A stretch of 34,313 bases of DNA from an uncultured Candidatus Saccharibacteria bacterium (GTDB lineage: Bacteria > Patescibacteriota > Minisyncoccia > Phycocordibacterales > GWA1-40-21). Within the stretch, counting starts at the first letter, position 1, and every line of letters begins with the position of its first letter. The notes beneath the pieces are model-generated. The model made no database searches, had not been told where the DNA came from, and worked only from the letters and a program-made list of their open reading frames with translations. This document shows positions 5,031 to 12,687 of the stretch, piece after piece. The position numbers and the translations under genes were made by a program. The DNA is taken from the NCBI GenBank assembly GCA_964587695.1, contig CAZPLP010000002.1:1-34313 (forward strand), in the 5' to 3' direction.

Positions 5031-7574
5031 ATGGCAAAATTTATTCATTTACATACTCATTCCCACTATTCTTTGCTCAATGCACTGCCTCAATTAAAAG
5101 AACTTATTAAAACAGTGAAGGATTTGGGCATGACATCTATAGCACTTACAGATGCTGGAAATATGTATGGGACTATTGAATTTTATCAAGATTGTAAAAA
5201 TAACGGGATAAAACCAATAATTGGAGTAGATTTTTACGTCGCCTCACGAACACGAAATGATAAACAGGGAGGAATAGATAATCGTAGAACCCGTTTAGTA
5301 CTCTTGGCAAAAAATGAAATTGGTTATAAAAATCTTATAAAACTTGTCACAGATTCATTTTTTGAGGGATTTTATTACAAGCCAAGGATAGACCATGAAC
5401 TTATAGAGAAATATTCTGAGGGGCTCGTTTGTATTATACCCCATTTTTCTGGAGAAACTTCGTACTCATTAAAAAACGGCGATACAGAAAAAGCTATAAA
5501 TGTTATAGCTTGGTATAAGAAAATCTTTAAAAATGATTTTTTTATAGAAATAACACATCATCCAGAAATAGAAGGACAAATTGAGCTTAAAGAAAAAATA
5601 ATAGAATTAGCAAAGGAAACCAAAACACCTCTTGTAGCAGCACATGATGTTTATTATTTACATCCGGAGGATAAAGCAGCTCGCGACACTCTTGTTCAAG
5701 TAAATTCTCATTCAGATTTTATAGATCGTGAACAAAAAGACAGCATTGATGATTTTTCTCTTATCTCATCAGAGACAGCAGAGCAATATTTCAAAGACAC
5801 ACCAGAAGCATTGGAAAACACTATAAAAATTGCTGAAATGTGTAATGTTGAAATTACACTTGGAAAAGATGCTTGGGTTTTTCCTGAATATTTTGTAGAA
5901 AGTGGTTTATCACATGATGAAGAATTAAAAAGGCTTGCATATCTTGGGATAGCAAAAAGAAATCTTACACATTCAAAAGAAGTAATAGACAGAATTGAAT
6001 ATGAACTTAAAATTATTAAAGATAAAAAATATTCAAAGTATTTTTTAGTTGTATCTGATCTTTTGCGCTTTGCTACTGAAAATGGAATTTATTCAAACAT
6101 AAGAGGTTCTGTTGCGGGATCTATTGTTACCTATCTTACTGGTATTACAAAAGTAAATCCGCTTGAATATAAACTTCCTTTTGAAAGATTTTTAAATCCG
6201 GAAAGACCTTCTGCCCCTGATATCGACATGGACTTTGCCGATAATCGAAGAGATGATGTTATAAATTATACTAAACAAAAATACGGAAAAGAAAACGTCG
6301 CACAAATCGGAACTTTTGGCACCATGATGGCTCGTGGTGCTTGTCGTGATGTTGCAAGAGCAATGGGTTATCCACTTCCTCTTGCAGACAAAATTGCCAA
6401 ACTTATTCCAATGGGTGCACAAGGAAAACCCATGACTCTAAAAAAAGCACTTAGGGATGTATCCGAACTCAAAGACATGTATGACAATAGTAAAGATACG
6501 AAAACAATTATAGATATGGCACAAAAAATAGAAGGTTGTGCAAGACACATTTCGGTTCATGCCGCTGGAGTTGTTATTGCTCCTTCACCTCTTATAAACT
6601 ATGTTCCGCTACAATATGATACGAAAGGTGAAAATAAAATCATTACTCAATATGATATGGATTCTGTTGGAGAAGATGGCGTTGGACTTTTAAAATTTGA
6701 TTTTCTTGGAATTAAAAATCTTTCAATTCTTGCTGAAGCTGTTCGTCGCGTAAAAGCTATCGAAAATATTGATATAGATATCGAGGCAATTCCACTAGAT
6801 GATAAACTCACTTATGAACTTTTAACAAAAGGAGAAACAACTGGACTTTTTCAACTAAACGGCCAGGGGATGACTAAATCTTTAAAAGAATTAAAACCAA
6901 CAAATGTTCACGATATAAATGTTATGGTCGCACTTTATAGGCCCGGACCAATGGACAACATACAAGAATATATTGCAAGAAAGCATGGTCTTAAAAAAAC
7001 TTCTTACCTCCACCCAAAAATGAAAGACTTTCTTGATACAACTTTTGGAGTACTTGTTTATCAGGATGATCTCTTAATGACTGCTATAGAAGTTGCTGGA
7101 TATACTTGGGGTGAAGTTGATAAATTTAGAAAAGCTATTGGAAAAAAGATACCGGAGGAAATGGCAAAGCAACATGTAAAATTCGTTGAGGGTTGTATTA
7201 AACATGGAGGTATGACAAGTAGTAAAGCAGAATCACTATGGAATTTGTTTGAACCATTTCAAGGTTATGGTTTCAATAAGGCACATGCAGCAAGTTATGG
7301 ACGCGTCGCATATCAAACTGCATATATGAAAGCAAACTTTCCTGCTATTTATATGTCTGCCGTTCTTACTGCAGATTCCGGAGACGTAGAAAAAATTGGT
7401 GAATTTATGGCCGATTGTAAAAAAATGGGAATTCCAGTTTTGCCTCCGTCTGTTAATGAAAGTTACAGAGATTTCACGACTGTTAAAACTCCAGGTGCAG
7501 ATGTACATTCAGCTGGAATTGATCGCGACAAAATCCGGTTTGGACTTACAACAATAAAAAACTTTGGCGAATAG
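5031..7574 (+). CDS. dnaE: DNA polymerase III alpha subunit, PHP plus polymerase core; ends at an in-frame TAG
   Basis: PHP motif HLHTHSHYSLL, PDIDMDF, and the palm/fingers blocks (GLLKFDFLG, YRPGPM, FNKAHAASY). The frame stops at TAG 7572..7574 in the middle of the conserved IKNFGE-x-IxxxIIEER region. Confidence 0.85.
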   Translation: MAKFIHLHTHSHYSLLNALPQLKELIKTVKDLGMTSIALTDAGNMYGTIEFYQDCKNNGIKPIIGVDFYVASRTRNDKQGGIDNRRTRLVLLAKNEIGYKNLIKLVTDSFFEGFYYKPRIDHELIEKYSEGLVCIIPHFSGETSYSLKNGDTEKAINVIAWYKKIFKNDFFIEITHHPEIEGQIELKEKIIELAKETKTPLVAAHDVYYLHPEDKAARDTLVQVNSHSDFIDREQKDSIDDFSLISSETAEQYFKDTPEALENTIKIAEMCNVEITLGKDAWVFPEYFVESGLSHDEELKRLAYLGIAKRNLTHSKEVIDRIEYELKIIKDKKYSKYFLVVSDLLRFATENGIYSNIRGSVAGSIVTYLTGITKVNPLEYKLPFERFLNPERPSAPDIDMDFADNRRDDVINYTKQKYGKENVAQIGTFGTMMARGACRDVARAMGYPLPLADKIAKLIPMGAQGKPMTLKKALRDVSELKDMYDNSKDTKTIIDMAQKIEGCARHISVHAAGVVIAPSPLINYVPLQYDTKGENKIITQYDMDSVGEDGVGLLKFDFLGIKNLSILAEAVRRVKAIENIDIDIEAIPLDDKLTYELLTKGETTGLFQLNGQGMTKSLKELKPTNVHDINVMVALYRPGPMDNIQEYIARKHGLKKTSYLHPKMKDFLDTTFGVLVYQDDLLMTAIEVAGYTWGEVDKFRKAIGKKIPEEMAKQHVKFVEGCIKHGGMTSSKAESLWNLFEPFQGYGFNKAHAASYGRVAYQTAYMKANFPAIYMSAVLTADSGDVEKIGEFMADCKKMGIPVLPPSVNESYRDFTTVKTPGADVHSAGIDRDKIRFGLTTIKNFGE

Positions 7575-8303
7575 ATTTCTAGAGTAATAATTGAAGAAAG
7601 AAAGAAAAATGGAAAGTTTACTTCCCTTTCAAATTTTCTTGAGAGAATTATGGACAGAAATTTAAACAAAAGATCTCTTGAGCCTCTTATTAAAACTGGT
7701 GCACTAGATGAGTTTGGTGATCGTGGTGTCATGCTCGCAAATTCTGAAAATCTTTTAAAATTTAATAAGGAGCTCAGTAAAAAAGATCAAAATCAAGATT
7801 CACTTTTCGGAATCTTTGATGGTGTATCTGCAGATACAGGAAAAATACAAGAAGCTTTCACACTTGAGCCAGCACCAAATGCAACAATGAAAGATAAACT
7901 CAACTGGGAAAAAGAATTGCTCGGAGTATATATTTCTGGACATCCTTTGGATAAATACAGAAATGCTTTGGATAAACAAAAAATAAGCATACAAAGAATT
8001 AAAAATTTACCAAATACTGAATCAGCCGAAGCAGAAGCAATAAAATCACAAATTGATGCTGGTCAACCAATCGGCGGAATCATCGAGGAGGTTCGAGAAA
8101 TAATGACTAAAAATAACGAGCCAATGGCATTTATAAAGCTTGCCGATTTTACTGGCTCAATAGATGCCGTAGTCTTTCCAAAAACTTATGCACAAATGAA
8201 AGATTCTATTAAACCCGACAAATGTATTGCAGCTATTTGTAAAGTTTCAGAAAGAAACGGAGAAATGAGCTTGATTATTGAGAGGTTGAAAGTACTAGAG
8301 TAA
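7575..8303 (+). CDS. dnaE: DNA polymerase III alpha, C-terminal continuation (HhH plus OB fold), in the same frame as 5031..7574; first ATG at 7650
   Basis: The codons directly after the TAG read ISRVIIEERKKNGKFTSLSNFLERIMDRNLNKRSLEPLIKTGALDEFG, which is the canonical DnaE segment following IKGVGE. Confidence 0.7.
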   Translation: MSRVIIEERKKNGKFTSLSNFLERIMDRNLNKRSLEPLIKTGALDEFGDRGVMLANSENLLKFNKELSKKDQNQDSLFGIFDGVSADTGKIQEAFTLEPAPNATMKDKLNWEKELLGVYISGHPLDKYRNALDKQKISIQRIKNLPNTESAEAEAIKSQIDAGQPIGGIIEEVREIMTKNNEPMAFIKLADFTGSIDAVVFPKTYAQMKDSIKPDKCIAAICKVSERNGEMSLIIERLKVLE

Positions 8304-8424: not shown

Positions 8425-8826
8425 CTATAGGAAAGATTTTAATTTCTCTTTTATCTCTAATACTCTCTGATATTCTAATTCATATAATTTTCTTTTTAAT
8501 CTTTTAACACTTATCAATTTCATTTGTGCCAGTATAGCTGAAACTTCTTTATTATTTACATCAGTATAATTAAAATAAAAATCAATTTTTTTCTGTTTTG
8601 TAGATAAAGGAATCGCCCAAAACATTTTGTTGTTAAACTTTTTAATTACTAAAATTGGCCTGGAATAATTATCCCCGCTTCCATTCTGTTCAAAACCGAT
8701 ATTTTCACCAAGATTACTCATCCAAACTTCTCCTTCTTTGGGAAATTTATCTGGTTCATCGACAGAAGAATCTATTATCTTTTTTAAATTATTCCATTTA
8801 TCAAAATCTTTTTGCATGATAAACAT
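8425..8826 (-). CDS. MazF/PemK-fold toxin-like protein
   Basis: GEVWMSNLGENIGFEQNGSGDNYSRPILVIKK, AIPLSTKQKK and SAILAQMKLISVKRL align block by block with E. coli MazF (GDLIWVDFDPTKGSEQAGHRPAVVLS, CVPCTTQSKG, ALADQVKSIAWRAR). The track start at 8853 is a TTG overlapping the RT. The ATG at 8826 (MFIMQKDFDKW) or at 8817 is more likely. Confidence 0.75.
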   Translation of the reverse strand: MFIMQKDFDKWNNLKKIIDSSVDEPDKFPKEGEVWMSNLGENIGFEQNGSGDNYSRPILVIKKFNNKMFWAIPLSTKQKKIDFYFNYTDVNNKEVSAILAQMKLISVKRLKRKLYELEYQRVLEIKEKLKSFL

Positions 8827-8845
8827 TCTATCATCTACATACCCA

Positions 8846-9838
8846 CTATCCAAGTAAATTTAAAATTTTATTTTTCAATTTAATCGCATTTCCATGACTC
8901 AACATTCCCAAATACGATTGCACGGTTTCCTCTTTATCACTCTCCTTTAATTTCCTAAACATCTTTCTTTTTGTCGCTGTTCGCAATACTCTATGTTTTG
9001 GAAAATGCACCCAGCCGAGAATATCAACTCCCGAAGCCAGCGTTTTGAGAAATAGTTTATTCGGATGCAATGTTAATTTAAGTTTAATACAAAGAAAATC
9101 ACTAATTTTTAATATTGCATTCTCAAGCCAAGCTTTATCCTGTGAAAGAAAAACGAAATCATCAGCATATCTAATATAATATTTTGCTTTCAATTTATGT
9201 TTTACAAATTGGTCAAATTCATTCATATAAATATTTACCAAAAGCTGAGATGTAAGATTTCCAAGAGGCAAACCCTTTCCTTTTTCAGTAGAATAAAAAC
9301 TTTGTATGATTTCGGTTAAAACAGACATTATATCTTTATCATATATATAATTATTTAATATTTTCAAAAGAATTTCTTGGTCTATTGAAGCAAAAAACTT
9401 TCTAATGTCGCACTTTAAAACCCAAACTGTTTTTGTATTATTTTTAGATACTTTATTTGAAAAATATCTGAATCTATCCATCGCTTTATGTGTCCCCTTT
9501 CCAACCCTGCAAGAATACGAATCGGCAATAAATGTTTTATCAAAAAATGGATACAGTTTTCTGTATAAAGCATGGTGTAATAGTCTGTCTCTCACTTTTG
9601 CCTTATGTATATTTCTTGGCTTTGGGTCAGAAATATTAAATGCTTCATATAAAGAATGTTTATAGGTTTTATTTTTTAATTCCGTGTGAAGTGAAATAAT
9701 ATTGCTCATCAAATGCCTTTGAAACTCCTCTACATCTTTGCGATCTTTTTTACCTACAACAAATTCTCTCCACGCTTCTAGCAGATTTTCCATTTCAATG
9801 ATATCTTGATAATTATTATTAAATTGAATTTTGGACAT
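8846..9838 (-). CDS. DGR-type reverse transcriptase
   Basis: YADD catalytic box (9158..9169), the SYSCRVGKGTHKA block and the LPLGNLTSQLLVNIY (xGxxxSQ) motif. Its 330-aa size fits DGR RTs. It is adjacent to the TR/VR pair. Confidence 0.9.
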   Translation of the reverse strand: MSKIQFNNNYQDIIEMENLLEAWREFVVGKKDRKDVEEFQRHLMSNIISLHTELKNKTYKHSLYEAFNISDPKPRNIHKAKVRDRLLHHALYRKLYPFFDKTFIADSYSCRVGKGTHKAMDRFRYFSNKVSKNNTKTVWVLKCDIRKFFASIDQEILLKILNNYIYDKDIMSVLTEIIQSFYSTEKGKGLPLGNLTSQLLVNIYMNEFDQFVKHKLKAKYYIRYADDFVFLSQDKAWLENAILKISDFLCIKLKLTLHPNKLFLKTLASGVDILGWVHFPKHRVLRTATKRKMFRKLKESDKEETVQSYLGMLSHGNAIKLKNKILNLLG

Positions 9839-9859
9839 AATTATTACAACATAAAATAT

Positions 9860-10256
9860 ATGACTTTGATGCCCCCCCCCCGAAAAGAAACTGCTACCAC
9901 TACTACAAAAAGTAAAAACTGCTTATATTCTTTGGTATGAATATTATCAGATTTTGCCAAAACCCCACAGATATTCTCTAGGTAATAGAATTGATACTTT
10001 GTTTATAGAAATAATAGAAGCGATTTCTGTTGCAAGTTTCCTTCCCAAAGAAGAAAAGCGTTCTTATATTTCCATTGCCATCAGAAAACTTGATACACTA
10101 AAAATCTTGATGATGGTTTTGTGGGAAACAAAATCTTTAGATAATAAAAAGTATATTGCTCTATCACTCCAAACAGACGATATTGGAAAAATGCTCGGAG
10201 GTTGGAATGGACAGATATTAAAACAAAACTCTCCCGCAAAAGCAGGAGAGAAATGA
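9860..10256 (+). CDS. avd: Avd-like accessory variability determinant (four-helix bundle), with the frame interrupted at a C10 tract
   Basis: ATG 9860 (or 9869), then C10, then the remaining 125 codons (124 sense codons plus TGA) in a different frame. One fewer C gives MTLMPPPEKKLLPLLQKVKTAYILWYEYYQILPKPHRYSLGNRID...IGKMLGGWNGQILKQNSPAKAGEK (131 aa). The C-terminus resembles Bordetella phage bAvd GRILGSWIARVNRKGQAGK. As assembled, only a TTG at 9954 opens the frame. Confidence 0.75.
9872..9881. repeat. Homopolymeric C10 tract
   Basis: Ten consecutive C read directly from the sequence, in an otherwise AT-rich region, immediately after ATG 9869..9871. Confidence 0.95.
10215..10250 (-). terminator. 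Hairpin plus U-run immediately downstream of the TR on the minus strand, antisense to the avd 3' end
   Basis: The minus strand reads ctctcc-t-gc tttt gc-g-ggagag (10250..10229), followed by ttttgtttt. Confidence 0.45.
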
Positions 10257-10261
10257 TGTGA

Positions 10262-10398
10262 TTTGCGAGCGAAAAAGAAGCGATTGTTGTCATTCCACTT
10301 GTTGTCGTCGTTCCCATTGTTGTTGTTCAACCACGAATCCGAATCGTTCCTGTTACAGTTGAAAAGCTTGAGGTTGCCATCACGGTCGCGTATTGTTT
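10262..10398 (-). repeat. DGR template repeat (TR)
   Basis: 137 nt homologous to 10750..10886. In the VR frame it reads TIRDRDGNLKLFNCNRNDSDSWLNNNNGNDDNKWNDNNRFFFARK, rich in AAY codons and preceded by an in-frame TAA. Confidence 0.9.
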
Positions 10399-10746
10399 AG
10401 AATCCTTCCTTACCACCACCCATTGAATGCACCACAAGGGTACTTCATTTTTCTAGCACGGAATACCGTGAAGAAAAATTGGTCGCTCTCAAGGTTGTAT
10501 CGAATTTGATATATTAAATATCCTAGATTCTAAACCAAGTAACTTCATTTTTTGAAGGACTACATATAACACTCTATTCAAAATCTTAATCGTGAATAAT
10601 CTCGATATATGGATACTAATTTCGGTAGCAAAAAATCGTAATCGTTTGCATAGTCACCTACTCTCAACAATATTTTAGCACGAATTAAGTATTAAGGAAT
10701 AAGAAAATAAGGGCTAGATTTAAGAATCTAAATTATAAGTTCTAAT

Positions 10747-12687
10747 TTACTTGCGAGCGAAAAAGAAGCGATAGTTGTCATTCCACATGTGGCCGTCGTT
10801 CCCACGGCTGCTGTACAACCACGAAGCCGAATCGTTCCTGTCACAGCTGAAAAGCTTGAGGTAGCCAAAACGGTCGCGTATAGCTTCCATTGCAATATTT
10901 GTCCAATTACCACTTTTTTCATAATTTAAACGGATTGTTGGAGCAAGTTTAGCTGGAACAAGTTCAAAATTATTTTCTTTTGCCTTTTCTTTAATATCTG
11001 CATAAGTATGAACTTCTGTATCACCAAAAAGTTCACCAACTGAAATAGATACAATTTCATAGGAATTATTTAGTTTTTCTTTCCAGTCAACTTTAGTCAA
11101 CATATCTTTTGAATAATCACTAATTTTATAACCCTCTTCTTCAAGTTTTTTAATTGCTATTTTATCAGAAGTGATTTCTTTATCAGGAATAATTTCTTTC
11201 AAAAAAACTTTTTGTTCTGGAAATTTGGAATAAATGTGTTCAATATTTTTTGGTAAAGATTTTAGAACTTTTGGATTGAATTCTCCAATGTATGCTTTAG
11301 TATTTTTATTTATTTCTTTCTCAGAATAAGCGATTTGATTTGGTTCACATTCAATTACAACAGGGGCATCTTCTTTGGGATTTCTTTGTGAAATGATTTC
11401 TTCAATTCTCGGATCTCTTTGATAACCGAAACCTTCTATTTTAGAATCTATTTCATATATGAACTTGAGCTCGTCTTTTGTTAGTTCTGGTTTTAGATAT
11501 ATTTTTTCTTTAGTTTCTTTGTCTTCTTTAAAGCTTTTCTTGTAAATAGCAGTCATGTCTTTCATATCTTTCGATATCTTCTGATATTTCTCTTTTCCCG
11601 GAAGTTCACTCATCTTCTTTTCAGCAATTTCTGTCATATTTCCTTCGAGATTTTGTTGATTATCTGCAACACCTCTTGTTTCGCCAATCTGATCTCCTTG
11701 CATACGAATAGCGATTCTTGGAATAGAAGGTTTGTTTTGTTTGTCCAATGTATAGTAAACATAGAAGTCTCCCCCTTTAAGATGAGTTTCTGCCGTGCCA
11801 TAACCTTTTGTACACCAAGCTACACCTTTATTTTGTAAAGATGACCATAGAGCTGTTGGGTCTGTTCCTTTCCCGTATTTAATCCATTTACCTTCTGTGA
11901 TTTCTCTCATCTCTGGGGTAATTTCTCCAGATTGTCTTATTGCTTCAGAATATTGTTTGGCAAAAGAAATCTTAGCGAAGTTTGCTACTTTTTCTTTAGT
12001 GAGCAATTCATTTTTAGGAATATCTCCATTTGCAGATTCTTGTTGAGCTTCTTGAAGATTTTTGAGCATCTCTGCATCTTTGTCGGCTTCAATCATTTGT
12101 TCAATATATGCGAGAGCTCCTCTGTCTATATCGGGAAATAGTTTTATGCTTCCTTCCGATCTTTTTGTGAATTCACCTTTATCTTTGTCATAATCTCCTA
12201 AATCTAAAACATTTCTGAAAGCATAATAACGAAACCACACAGGATATGGTTCGTTTGCATCAGAAAGATATGAAATCCAATTGTCTAGGGATTTTTCCAA
12301 ATCGGTGACTGCGATATCTCCCCTTTGATCCATTTGTTCTTCCTCATAGCGTGCTTCAATACCCATATCCCTAGCGGCTCTTTCTTCAACTCTTCTTGCA
12401 CCTTCGGCCAGGGCTTCTTTATTTCCTCGGACATATTTGTTCATGACCATTTCCCTGAGCAAAGACAAAGCTCGTGGACGAGTTTCTGACCCGTGAGTTT
12501 TCTTTGGTTGTTCTTTATTTGGATCTAGAACTAGCTTTTCTAGACGATCTAAATAATTTTTTATTTTAGCTTCTGGATCATTAGGCACTTTCTCGCCTGT
12601 GCGTTCTTCTGTACGCTCGGCTGATGCTTCCACTTCTGGAGCATTGTGTAGGTCGTATTTCTTTTTGAGGAAGTCGAAGTTTTCCAT
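10747..12687 (-). CDS. DGR target protein (646 aa) with a C-terminal variable, C-type-lectin-like end (...RFFFARK)
   Basis: Long ATG-initiated ORF whose 3' end is the VR. The N-terminus is hydrophilic, with no signal peptide or TM segment visible. The N-terminal ~570 aa are not recognised. Confidence 0.85.
   Translation of the reverse strand: MENFDFLKKKYDLHNAPEVEASAERTEERTGEKVPNDPEAKIKNYLDRLEKLVLDPNKEQPKKTHGSETRPRALSLLREMVMNKYVRGNKEALAEGARRVEERAARDMGIEARYEEEQMDQRGDIAVTDLEKSLDNWISYLSDANEPYPVWFRYYAFRNVLDLGDYDKDKGEFTKRSEGSIKLFPDIDRGALAYIEQMIEADKDAEMLKNLQEAQQESANGDIPKNELLTKEKVANFAKISFAKQYSEAIRQSGEITPEMREITEGKWIKYGKGTDPTALWSSLQNKGVAWCTKGYGTAETHLKGGDFYVYYTLDKQNKPSIPRIAIRMQGDQIGETRGVADNQQNLEGNMTEIAEKKMSELPGKEKYQKISKDMKDMTAIYKKSFKEDKETKEKIYLKPELTKDELKFIYEIDSKIEGFGYQRDPRIEEIISQRNPKEDAPVVIECEPNQIAYSEKEINKNTKAYIGEFNPKVLKSLPKNIEHIYSKFPEQKVFLKEIIPDKEITSDKIAIKKLEEEGYKISDYSKDMLTKVDWKEKLNNSYEIVSISVGELFGDTEVHTYADIKEKAKENNFELVPAKLAPTIRLNYEKSGNWTNIAMEAIRDRFGYLKLFSCDRNDSASWLYSSRGNDGHMWNDNYRFFFARK
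10750..10886 (-). repeat. DGR variable repeat (VR), the last 46 codons of the target gene
   Basis: It differs from the TR at 18 positions. Of these, 17 are sites where the TR has A on the coding strand. Confidence 0.9.

Follow-up and report, generated by a model that had tools for sequence, protein, structure and literature searches.

The window analysed here is a 34,313-nt contig (CAZPLP010000002.1; C2 of a genome bin of 435 kb, 32% G+C and 41 contigs) from an uncultured Candidatus Saccharibacteria bacterium. It carries a diversity-generating retroelement (DGR) that comprises a target gene with a variable repeat (VR), a template repeat (TR), a reverse transcriptase (RT) gene and an avd-like reading frame. 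With a probability of roughly 0.6, this locus is an intact DGR of the candidate phyla radiation (CPR)/Patescibacteria type with the known gene order Architecture B3, and its TR is transcribed as a discrete, self-terminated template RNA with permuted priming and stop parts in the 5´ leader. The promoter motif, the helices, the hairpin 3´ of the TR and the strand on which this hairpin is read all emerge from comparison with relatives, which comprise 19 loci from related genomes and 80 metagenome loci with RT identities of 53–86%.

The TR RNA would be a separate minus-strand non-coding RNA that starts at an extended -10 promoter in the VR–TR spacer, passes through a structured leader of ~270 nt (~215 nt in relatives) and the 132-nt TR, and ends ~40 nt after the TR at a 9-bp tetraloop hairpin with a U-run (10250..10220). 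This hairpin would be the counterpart of the Avd-binding stem-loop of the Bordetella phage BPP-1 DGR and would double as an intrinsic terminator, thus preventing read-through across antisense avd into the RT gene. Because the RNA would stop at the hairpin, the parts that lie 3´ of the phage stem-loop would sit in the 5´ leader instead: the priming strand, a strand that pairs immediately 5´ of the TR, a short stem-loop whose tail is A-rich, and the RT-binding stems. The coordinates of all features are listed in Table 1.

The hairpin 3´ of the TR

On the minus strand, the hairpin (10250..10229) consists of CTCTCCTGC-TTTT-GCGGGAGAG and is followed by TTTTGTTTT at 10228..10220. A terminator scan recovers the hairpin and the U-run exactly as they had been described in the first-pass annotation. 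The element has the form of an intrinsic terminator, with a G+C-rich stem (6 G-C pairs of 9), a 4-nt loop and a U4GU4 tail. The minus strand is predicted to fold at -17.0 kcal/mol (z = -5.7), the plus strand at -12.2 kcal/mol; the plus-strand fold is weaker since a C·A mismatch takes the place of a G·U pair.

A first alignment of the hairpin with MAFFT and RNAalifold lost the two outer pairs because stem lengths vary, and a covariance model (R1), built from 36 sequences, was used instead. This model matches exactly once per locus in 73 loci, 360–440 nt upstream of the RT start and on the TR/RT strand. In a second set of loci from named Patescibacteria metagenome-assembled genomes (MAGs), 69 of 80 are matched with the same geometry; the match in the window spans 10274..10220 and scores 70.7 bits. 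The hairpin always lies 12–16 nt after the TR on the TR/RT strand, with 12 nt in the window. In these alignments of related sequences, fitted to the model, the pair positions are paired in 93.0% of cases in the first set and 96.7% in the second, compared with 75.3% and 77.8% after shuffling of the partners, and positions changed on both sides number 102 and 124 compared with 28.5 and 31.6, the shuffle counts not being probabilities. Shifted-register controls are paired at 32–56% and 32–60%, respectively. Eight of the nine pairs covary in each of the two sets. The tail is likewise retained: of 68 distinct relatives, 65 have six or more U among the nine nucleotides that follow the stem. Among the hairpin pairs, 59 are G·U and 10 are A·C when read on the minus strand; on the plus strand, an A·C would appear as G·U. 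By these comparative measures, the hairpin with its U-run is a conserved, strand-specific RNA element.

The last nine codons of avd and its stop codon overlap this element on the opposite strand, and the hairpin could in principle be a by-product of the conservation of the Avd C-terminal tail (KQNSP..GEK) rather than an RNA element. The tail is conserved as protein in close relatives, and the Avd of BPP-1 likewise has a basic, G/K-rich C-terminal tail. Three observations argue against this explanation. The paired positions change together and thereby alter the encoded residues; the excess of G·U over A·C indicates the strand opposite avd; and in four loci (L006, L014, L016 and L019) the avd stop falls inside the hairpin loop, the distal arm being kept nonetheless outside the reading frame. 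Already disfavoured, this explanation is very improbable.

Handa et al. (bioRxiv 10.1101/2023.10.23.563531) solved the structure of the BPP-1 RT-Avd-RNA complex and reported that 207 of 278 Avd-bearing DGRs, CPR members among them, have similar stem-loops immediately 3´ of the TR, which were proposed to bind Avd; these are most commonly 9 bp long with tetraloops. The hairpin of the window fits this class, and by analogy it would bind Avd. A simpler alternative keeps the terminator and dispenses with any role in the ribonucleoprotein (RNP): the hairpin and U-run would be a Rho-independent terminator only, which insulates avd and RT from transcription of the TR or the target. The canonical form of the element and the retained U tail speak for it, and the sequence conservation of the outer stem could partly reflect the overlapping avd codons. 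However, the outer stem CUCUCC/GGAGAG and the 12–16-nt spacing from the TR are kept across RTs that are only ~60% identical, which an ordinary terminator would not need, and BPP-1 and many other DGRs have an Avd-binding stem-loop at precisely this position. We therefore consider a terminator without RNP function unlikely.

That the TR transcript ends inside the antisense of the avd 3´ codons, as had been supposed, is plausible in view of the conserved, strand-specific hairpin and U-run, with termination itself as a prediction. A primer segment 3´ of the TR of the BPP-1 type would then not be usable in the same manner here, because the RNA plausibly ends within antisense avd. The 3´ end of the TR RNA (about 10254..10222) is antisense to the last avd codons. 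The terminator scan detects no plus-strand terminator after avd, and avd transcripts may therefore run antisense through the TR. Convergent transcription with antisense coupling of avd and the TR RNA, also raised by the first-pass annotation, is thus possible. A bidirectional terminator that also serves avd was considered and rejected, since the plus-strand fold is weaker and no U-run follows it.

The putative promoter and a probable discrete TR RNA

The putative promoter of the TR RNA, TGcTAAAAT, conforms to an extended -10 element. The hexamer TAnnnT is present in 51 of 52 related loci and the full TGnTAnnnT in 42 of 52. The element is located at a fixed distance of 12–13 nt before helix H1 and is preceded by a T-rich stretch. 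In 54 of 57 loci the VR lies ~430–520 nt upstream of the TR, and the spacer between them is conserved more strongly than the TR itself. The distance from just past the -10 hexamer to the terminator is 396–402 nt in most loci and 454 nt in the window, where the RNA from its predicted start would measure ~444 nt. The window RNA is longer because of a ~58-nt insertion in an apical loop of the leader. Promoter and hairpin probably bound a discrete non-coding TR RNA with these predicted ends, which would measure ~397 nt in relatives.

If the TR RNA is terminated before the RT gene, the RT would need a promoter of its own. A TAnnnT hexamer 7 nt before the RT ATG was found by eye in ~12 of 18 loci of one spacing class, defined by a repeat tract that lies 14 nt from the RT ATG, and this arrangement hints weakly that the RT mRNA may be leaderless.

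The structured 5´ leader

An RNAalifold consensus from an unfitted MAFFT alignment of 32 loci contains 60 pairs, 44 of which show compensatory changes. For the leader together with a candidate long-range helix, 95.9% of the pair positions are paired, compared with 84.1% after shuffling, and 309 positions are changed on both sides, compared with 82.5; shifted-register controls reach at most 54%. The leader structure is thus strongly supported by covariation. A search of Rfam gave no match within 9700..10900 at E values up to 1.

Two long-range interactions would connect the leader with the TR flanks. Leader strand 10550..10542 would pair with the 3´ flank of the TR, and six nucleotides on, 10535..10525 would pair with the 12 nt that abut the 5´ end of the TR (H3). 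H4 and an A-rich segment come next, and the leader would in this way clamp both ends of the TR. The evidence for the two helices differs in strength. In 31 of 32 loci, the strand next to the TR 5´ end pairs better with the leader than with any downstream stretch: 11.5 of 12 pairs form in the leader, compared with 9.2 of 12 anywhere in the ~200 nt downstream, which is the background level. The helix between the leader and the 3´ flank is a candidate of moderate standing: 93.4% of its positions are paired, four of its nine pairs are changed on both sides, and it is retained in altered sequence in two distant loci, L092 and L018. The complement search for this helix is noisy because the U-tail also pairs by G·U. 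The stretch between the two leader strands, UACUUGG, is conserved more strongly than any other block of the RNA.

The apical loop of H5 harbors the window-specific insertion, which carries its own hairpin (CACGG-UAUU-CCGUG, with U/A runs on both sides) and a second copy of AAAAAUGAAGU. This insertion is missing from 30 of 31 other aligned loci; L083 has a different insertion in the same loop. H1 and H2 have one apical motif in common, GAYYAMGGYUU, with G·U/A-U/U·G pairs closing it. The two hairpins resemble copies of a single module and may serve as binding sites for proteins.

The hairpin could instead be an Avd-binding stem-loop only, within a transcript that reads through from the TR across antisense avd into the RT gene and that carries primer and stop elements like those of the BPP-1 spacer (Sp) in antisense avd. 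BPP-1 sets the precedent for such an arrangement, the 207 DGRs of Handa et al. (bioRxiv 10.1101/2023.10.23.563531), CPR included, have predicted upstream/downstream duplexes, and a separate RT promoter is only putative in the window. What read-through leaves unaccounted for is the conserved U-tract directly after a strong stem, the tightly conserved length from promoter to terminator, and the position of the stop-like partner: the TR-abutting strand has it upstream in 31 of 32 loci, with 10 of 12 pairs covarying, and nothing above background is found in the ~200 nt downstream, a stretch that is protein-coding on the other strand. Read-through appears improbable, to about the same degree as a terminator without RNP function.

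Several points weigh against a self-terminated RNA with a permuted leader. The termination efficiency and the start site are predictions, and the RT promoter is putative. The alignments behind the hairpin counts were fitted to the covariance model, the shuffle controls overstate the support because the sequences are related, and part of the conservation of the U-run could be coding because the U-run corresponds to the avd codons K-Q-N. The leader structure was derived from the same alignment that was used for counting, and a single-sequence fold of the whole 546-nt region is not exceptional (z = -1.5), the structure being visible comparatively only. The helix between the leader and the 3´ flank has two competitors, a local hairpin (ACUUC...GAAGU) found in most loci and G·U pairs with the U-tail; the covariation of the helix is modest, with about 12 pair positions changed on both sides.

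The DGR core and its gene order

The 131-nt core of the TR differs from the VR at 15 positions, of which 14 are minus-strand TR adenines and one is a G>T change. The TR sense strand is therefore the minus strand, the same as that of the target gene and the RT, in agreement with the first-pass annotation. The VR (10882..10751) ends 1 nt before the stop codon of the 646-aa target reading frame. The target protein has no match in Pfam or NCBIfam. Among solved structures, the best match of the RT is the 328-aa RT chain 8ub7_A (E 3.9e-42; entries 8ub7-8ube). From its length, we take 8ub7 to be the Bordetella phage bRT; the entry name reads only 'Reverse transcriptase'. Three defining components of a DGR are present: an adenine-biased TR/VR pair, an RT of the DGR clade near the TR, and a VR at the 3´ end of the target. 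Relatives of the RT occur in named Patescibacteria MAGs, such as those of Paceibacterota, Nomurabacteria and Kaiserbacteria.

The minus strand carries, in order, the target gene with the VR, a spacer of ~350 nt, the TR and the RT; the Avd-like frame is located on the plus strand between the TR and the RT. This inverted avd had been regarded as non-canonical wiring, but the layout is already described. Wu et al. 2018 (NAR 46:11, PMC5758913) named the arrangement TR-(avd)-RT, in which avd is encoded on the reverse strand, Architecture B3, and 90% of the CPR DGRs in their set belong to it; the window has the TR, the reverse-strand avd and the RT in this order. All 88 related loci whose sequence extends upstream of the RT have avd adjacent to the RT and divergent from it, head to head; 12 further contigs, which end within 70 nt of the RT start, stand outside this count. 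Being both published and present throughout the relatives, the layout is the lineage norm rather than a novelty.

The surroundings of the locus contain several additional features. Directly 3´ of the RT, on the same strand and with a slight overlap, a MazF/PemK-like open reading frame (ORF) is found at 8425-8853 (minus strand; Pfam PemK_toxin, E 2.3e-8). A dnaE-like gene (5031-8303) appears as two ORFs (5031..7574 and 7650..8303) in the ORF list. The VR and the target stop are followed, ~16-30 nt further downstream, by an AT-rich inverted repeat (10714-10731; plus strand, TAGATT-TAAG-AATCTA). At the equivalent position, relatives have a G+C-rich hairpin and a T-run directly before the TR promoter, and L082 has a ~430-nt insertion between the VR-side terminator and the TR promoter. 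The inverted repeat may be a terminator of the target gene or a VR-flanking homing hairpin.

The avd frame and the repeat tract at its start

The plus-strand frame between the TR and the RT matches the NCBIfam profile DivGenRetAVD (E 8.2e-17, 61.4 bits with a curated cut-off of 80, 102 of 104 profile positions) and the Pfam profile bAvd (E 3.4e-9, 37.6 bits with a cut-off of 40). A phmmer search of the protein against solved structures matched no Avd. The profile matches are significant though below the curated cut-offs, and the gene context supports them; the frame is Avd-like, as assigned earlier.

The boundaries proposed earlier stand in part. The RT start at 9838 and the avd stop at 10254..10256 are retained; the stop lies 6 nt rather than 5 nt from the TR, whose boundary is at 10263, and ATG 9860 does not start avd. 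Both ATG 9860 and ATG 9869 are out of the Avd frame because of a run of ten C residues (C10), and their own frame reads MTLMPPPRKE... and ends after 26 codons. The ATG frame and the Avd frame would be joined only by C9 or C12. The sole in-frame ATG, GTG or TTG codon is TTG 9954, and a start there would delete helix 1, a helix included in the Avd profile match from residue 9 on. With both ATGs out of frame across C10, the assembly contains no intact, translatable avd gene.

The C10 tract is the longest G/C run of the 435-kb genome, followed by C8 and C7. Of 88 loci, 76 have a C6-C12 run at the equivalent position, the run invariably reading as CCC codons in an AT-rich genome, and two loci with C10 (L045) and C8 (L054) are identical in their 150-nt flanks. 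Elsewhere, unrelated repeats replace the poly-C, namely (GTCTGAT)8, (GATTGCT)8, (GT)15-19 and (CT)10. The ends of 12 of 100 contigs fall within 70 nt of the RT start, and several of these contigs break off in a repeat of this kind, which suggests heterogeneity or assembly breaks there. Because unrelated repeat units with lengths not divisible by three occur at one site, a slippage-prone frame switch on avd is favoured and a sequence-specific role of the G/C letters is unlikely. These comparisons argue for a putative switch whose copy in the window would be in the "off" frame.

The distance from the repeat tract to the 'LLP' motif of Avd is nearly constant. A role of the tract, read as poly-G, as a Shine-Dalgarno or promoter-spacer element for the RT was rejected, with the distance to the RT ATG varying from -28 to +58 nt. 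A programmed +1 frameshift on CCC-C was likewise not adopted: a +1 shift is always needed in the spacing class of the window (the window, L002-L004, L006, L008 and L009), but other spacing classes show all three frame relations.

Table 1. Features of the DGR and its predicted template RNA. Positions refer to the window unless a related locus (L) is named.
Feature	Position	Strand	Remarks
DGR reverse transcriptase	8846..9838	-	330 aa; RVT_1 E 1.4e-22; LGNLTSQ and YADD motifs read from the ORF
avd reading frame	9870..10256	+	128 codons, open from just after TGA; stop TGA 10254..10256
C10 homopolymer	9872..9881	+	between the ATGs (9860, 9869) and the Avd body
Unrelated repeats at the RT/avd junction	L037:1-55, L063:1-62, L039:1-38, L041:24-49, L017		unit length not divisible by 3
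U-tract UUUUGUUUU	10220..10228	-	directly 3´ of the stem; antisense of avd codons K-Q-N
Stem-loop	10229..10250	-	9-bp stem, UUUU tetraloop; antisense to avd codons 120-127
3´ flank of TR, consensus CUCUUCAUUU, here CACAUCAUUU	10251..10262	-	complementary to leader 10550..10542
Template repeat (TR)	10263..10394	-	132 nt; 131-nt core with 42 adenines
Structured 5´ leader of TR RNA	10395..10665	-	~270 nt; ~215 nt in relatives
Window-specific insertion	10427..10486	-	~58-60 nt, H5 apical loop; own hairpin and second copy of AAAAAUGAAGU
H5	10495..10487 with 10426..10418	-	
H4	10522..10517 with 10513..10508	-	conserved A-rich segment next
H3	10535..10525 with 10405..10394	-	second strand is the 12 nt abutting the TR 5´ end; 10/12 pairs covary
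Invariant UACUUGG	10541..10535	-	most conserved block of the RNA
Leader strand AAAUGAAGU	10550..10542	-	complementary to TR 3´ flank 10259..10251
H2	10611..10589 with 10584..10563	-	
H1	10665..10641 with 10636..10618	-	
Extended -10 promoter TGcTAAAAT (TGCTAAAAT)	10672..10680	-	predicted start near 10665
DGR target gene	10747..12687	-	646 aa, ORF list; VR at 3´ end
Variable repeat (VR)	10751..10882	-	last ~44 codons of the target gene; aligned to TR

Implications

The CPR/Patescibacteria hold many of the DGRs known in nature. To our knowledge, the mechanism of DGRs has been worked out solely on one phage element, and the wiring of its RNA is different. The inverted avd layout is already known, and the hairpin belongs to a described class of elements. 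New with respect to the literature searched are the predicted doubling of the hairpin as the terminator of a discrete template RNA and a conserved leader that seems to contain permuted priming and stop elements. The portion of Wu et al. 2018 (PMC5758913) drawn on here describes no TR promoter, 5´ leader or post-TR terminator, and the terminator screen it describes was restricted to the region downstream of the VR.

A more specific and general proposal can be put forward tentatively, at somewhat less than even odds. In the B3-type DGRs of Patescibacteria, the largest reservoir of DGRs in nature, the template RNA would be circularly permuted, with the priming nucleotide in or next to UACUUGG and with the stop-duplex strand and the RT-binding stems in the ~215-nt leader; it would be cut off after an Avd stem-loop that doubles as terminator, and the repeat at the start of avd would switch the machine on and off. 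If the template RNA here is short and self-terminated, with its priming and stop parts 5´ of the TR, current rules for finding and engineering DGR RNAs, which search ~100-140 nt downstream of the TR, would miss functional parts in this whole group. The compact RNA of ~400 nt, together with the RT and Avd, would constitute a defined minimal system for reconstitution. Comparison with the phage RNA would also separate those RNP features that are set by three-dimensional arrangement from those that are set by connectivity.

Comparison with known systems

The locus shares with the B3 DGRs of Wu et al. the gene order and orientation, the Patescibacteria host and a target without a recognisable domain. 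Its layout differs from theirs in nothing, and we consider it a member of this group.

The repeat tract at the start of avd resembles the poly-G/C contingency loci of Campylobacter, Neisseria and Haemophilus. In both cases, an AT-rich genome has a slippage-prone repeat within the initial codons of a gene, and the tract varies in length and frame among relatives. Unlike contingency loci, the avd tract would gate a helper gene of hypermutation rather than a surface antigen, and its switching is putative.

The retron msr-msd RNA is, like the proposed TR RNA, a discrete and self-contained non-coding template RNA. Priming in it starts from a nucleotide 5´ of the template, and complementary strands on the flanks place the primer next to the template end. 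The two systems differ in the clade of their RTs, and retrons have no Avd, adenine mutagenesis or retrohoming into a VR. The likeness to retrons would be topological only.

The closest comparison is with BPP-1, to which the closest solved RT (8ub7) is taken to belong. The BPP-1 RNA runs from the 3´ end of avd through the TR into the Sp (Handa et al. 2018, PMC6182149). Its primer nucleotide A56 pairs with the TR 3´ end, and two nucleotides on, Sp 59-70 pairs just 5´ of the TR; a short stem-loop, unpaired As and an RT-binding stem follow, all downstream of the TR (PMC6182149; bioRxiv 10.1101/2023.10.23.563531). The same series of parts can be recognized in the window. Both RNAs have a tetraloop stem-loop of ~9-11 bp just 3´ of the TR (Sp 3-33, Avd-binding, in BPP-1). 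In both, one strand pairs at the TR 3´ end (the TR:Sp primer duplex in BPP-1, the 3´ flank in the window) and another just 5´ of the TR (the cPRT Stop duplex of 11 bp in BPP-1, 12 bp in the window), and a short stem-loop is followed by A-rich nucleotides, which are unpaired in BPP-1. The connectivity of the parts differs. All these strands of the BPP-1 RNA are located 3´ of the TR, as far as Sp 140, and avd, TR and brt share one orientation. In the window, by contrast, the RNA apparently ends ~40 nt after the TR, and the leader, which has the additional hairpins H1 and H2 and from which priming would take place, contains the primer-like and stop-like strands ~130-150 nt before the start of the TR. 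The correspondence suggests that the TR RNA is a circular permutation of the BPP-1 DGR RNA, and we infer that this permutation was made necessary, or possible, by the ending of the RNA at the Avd-binding stem-loop.

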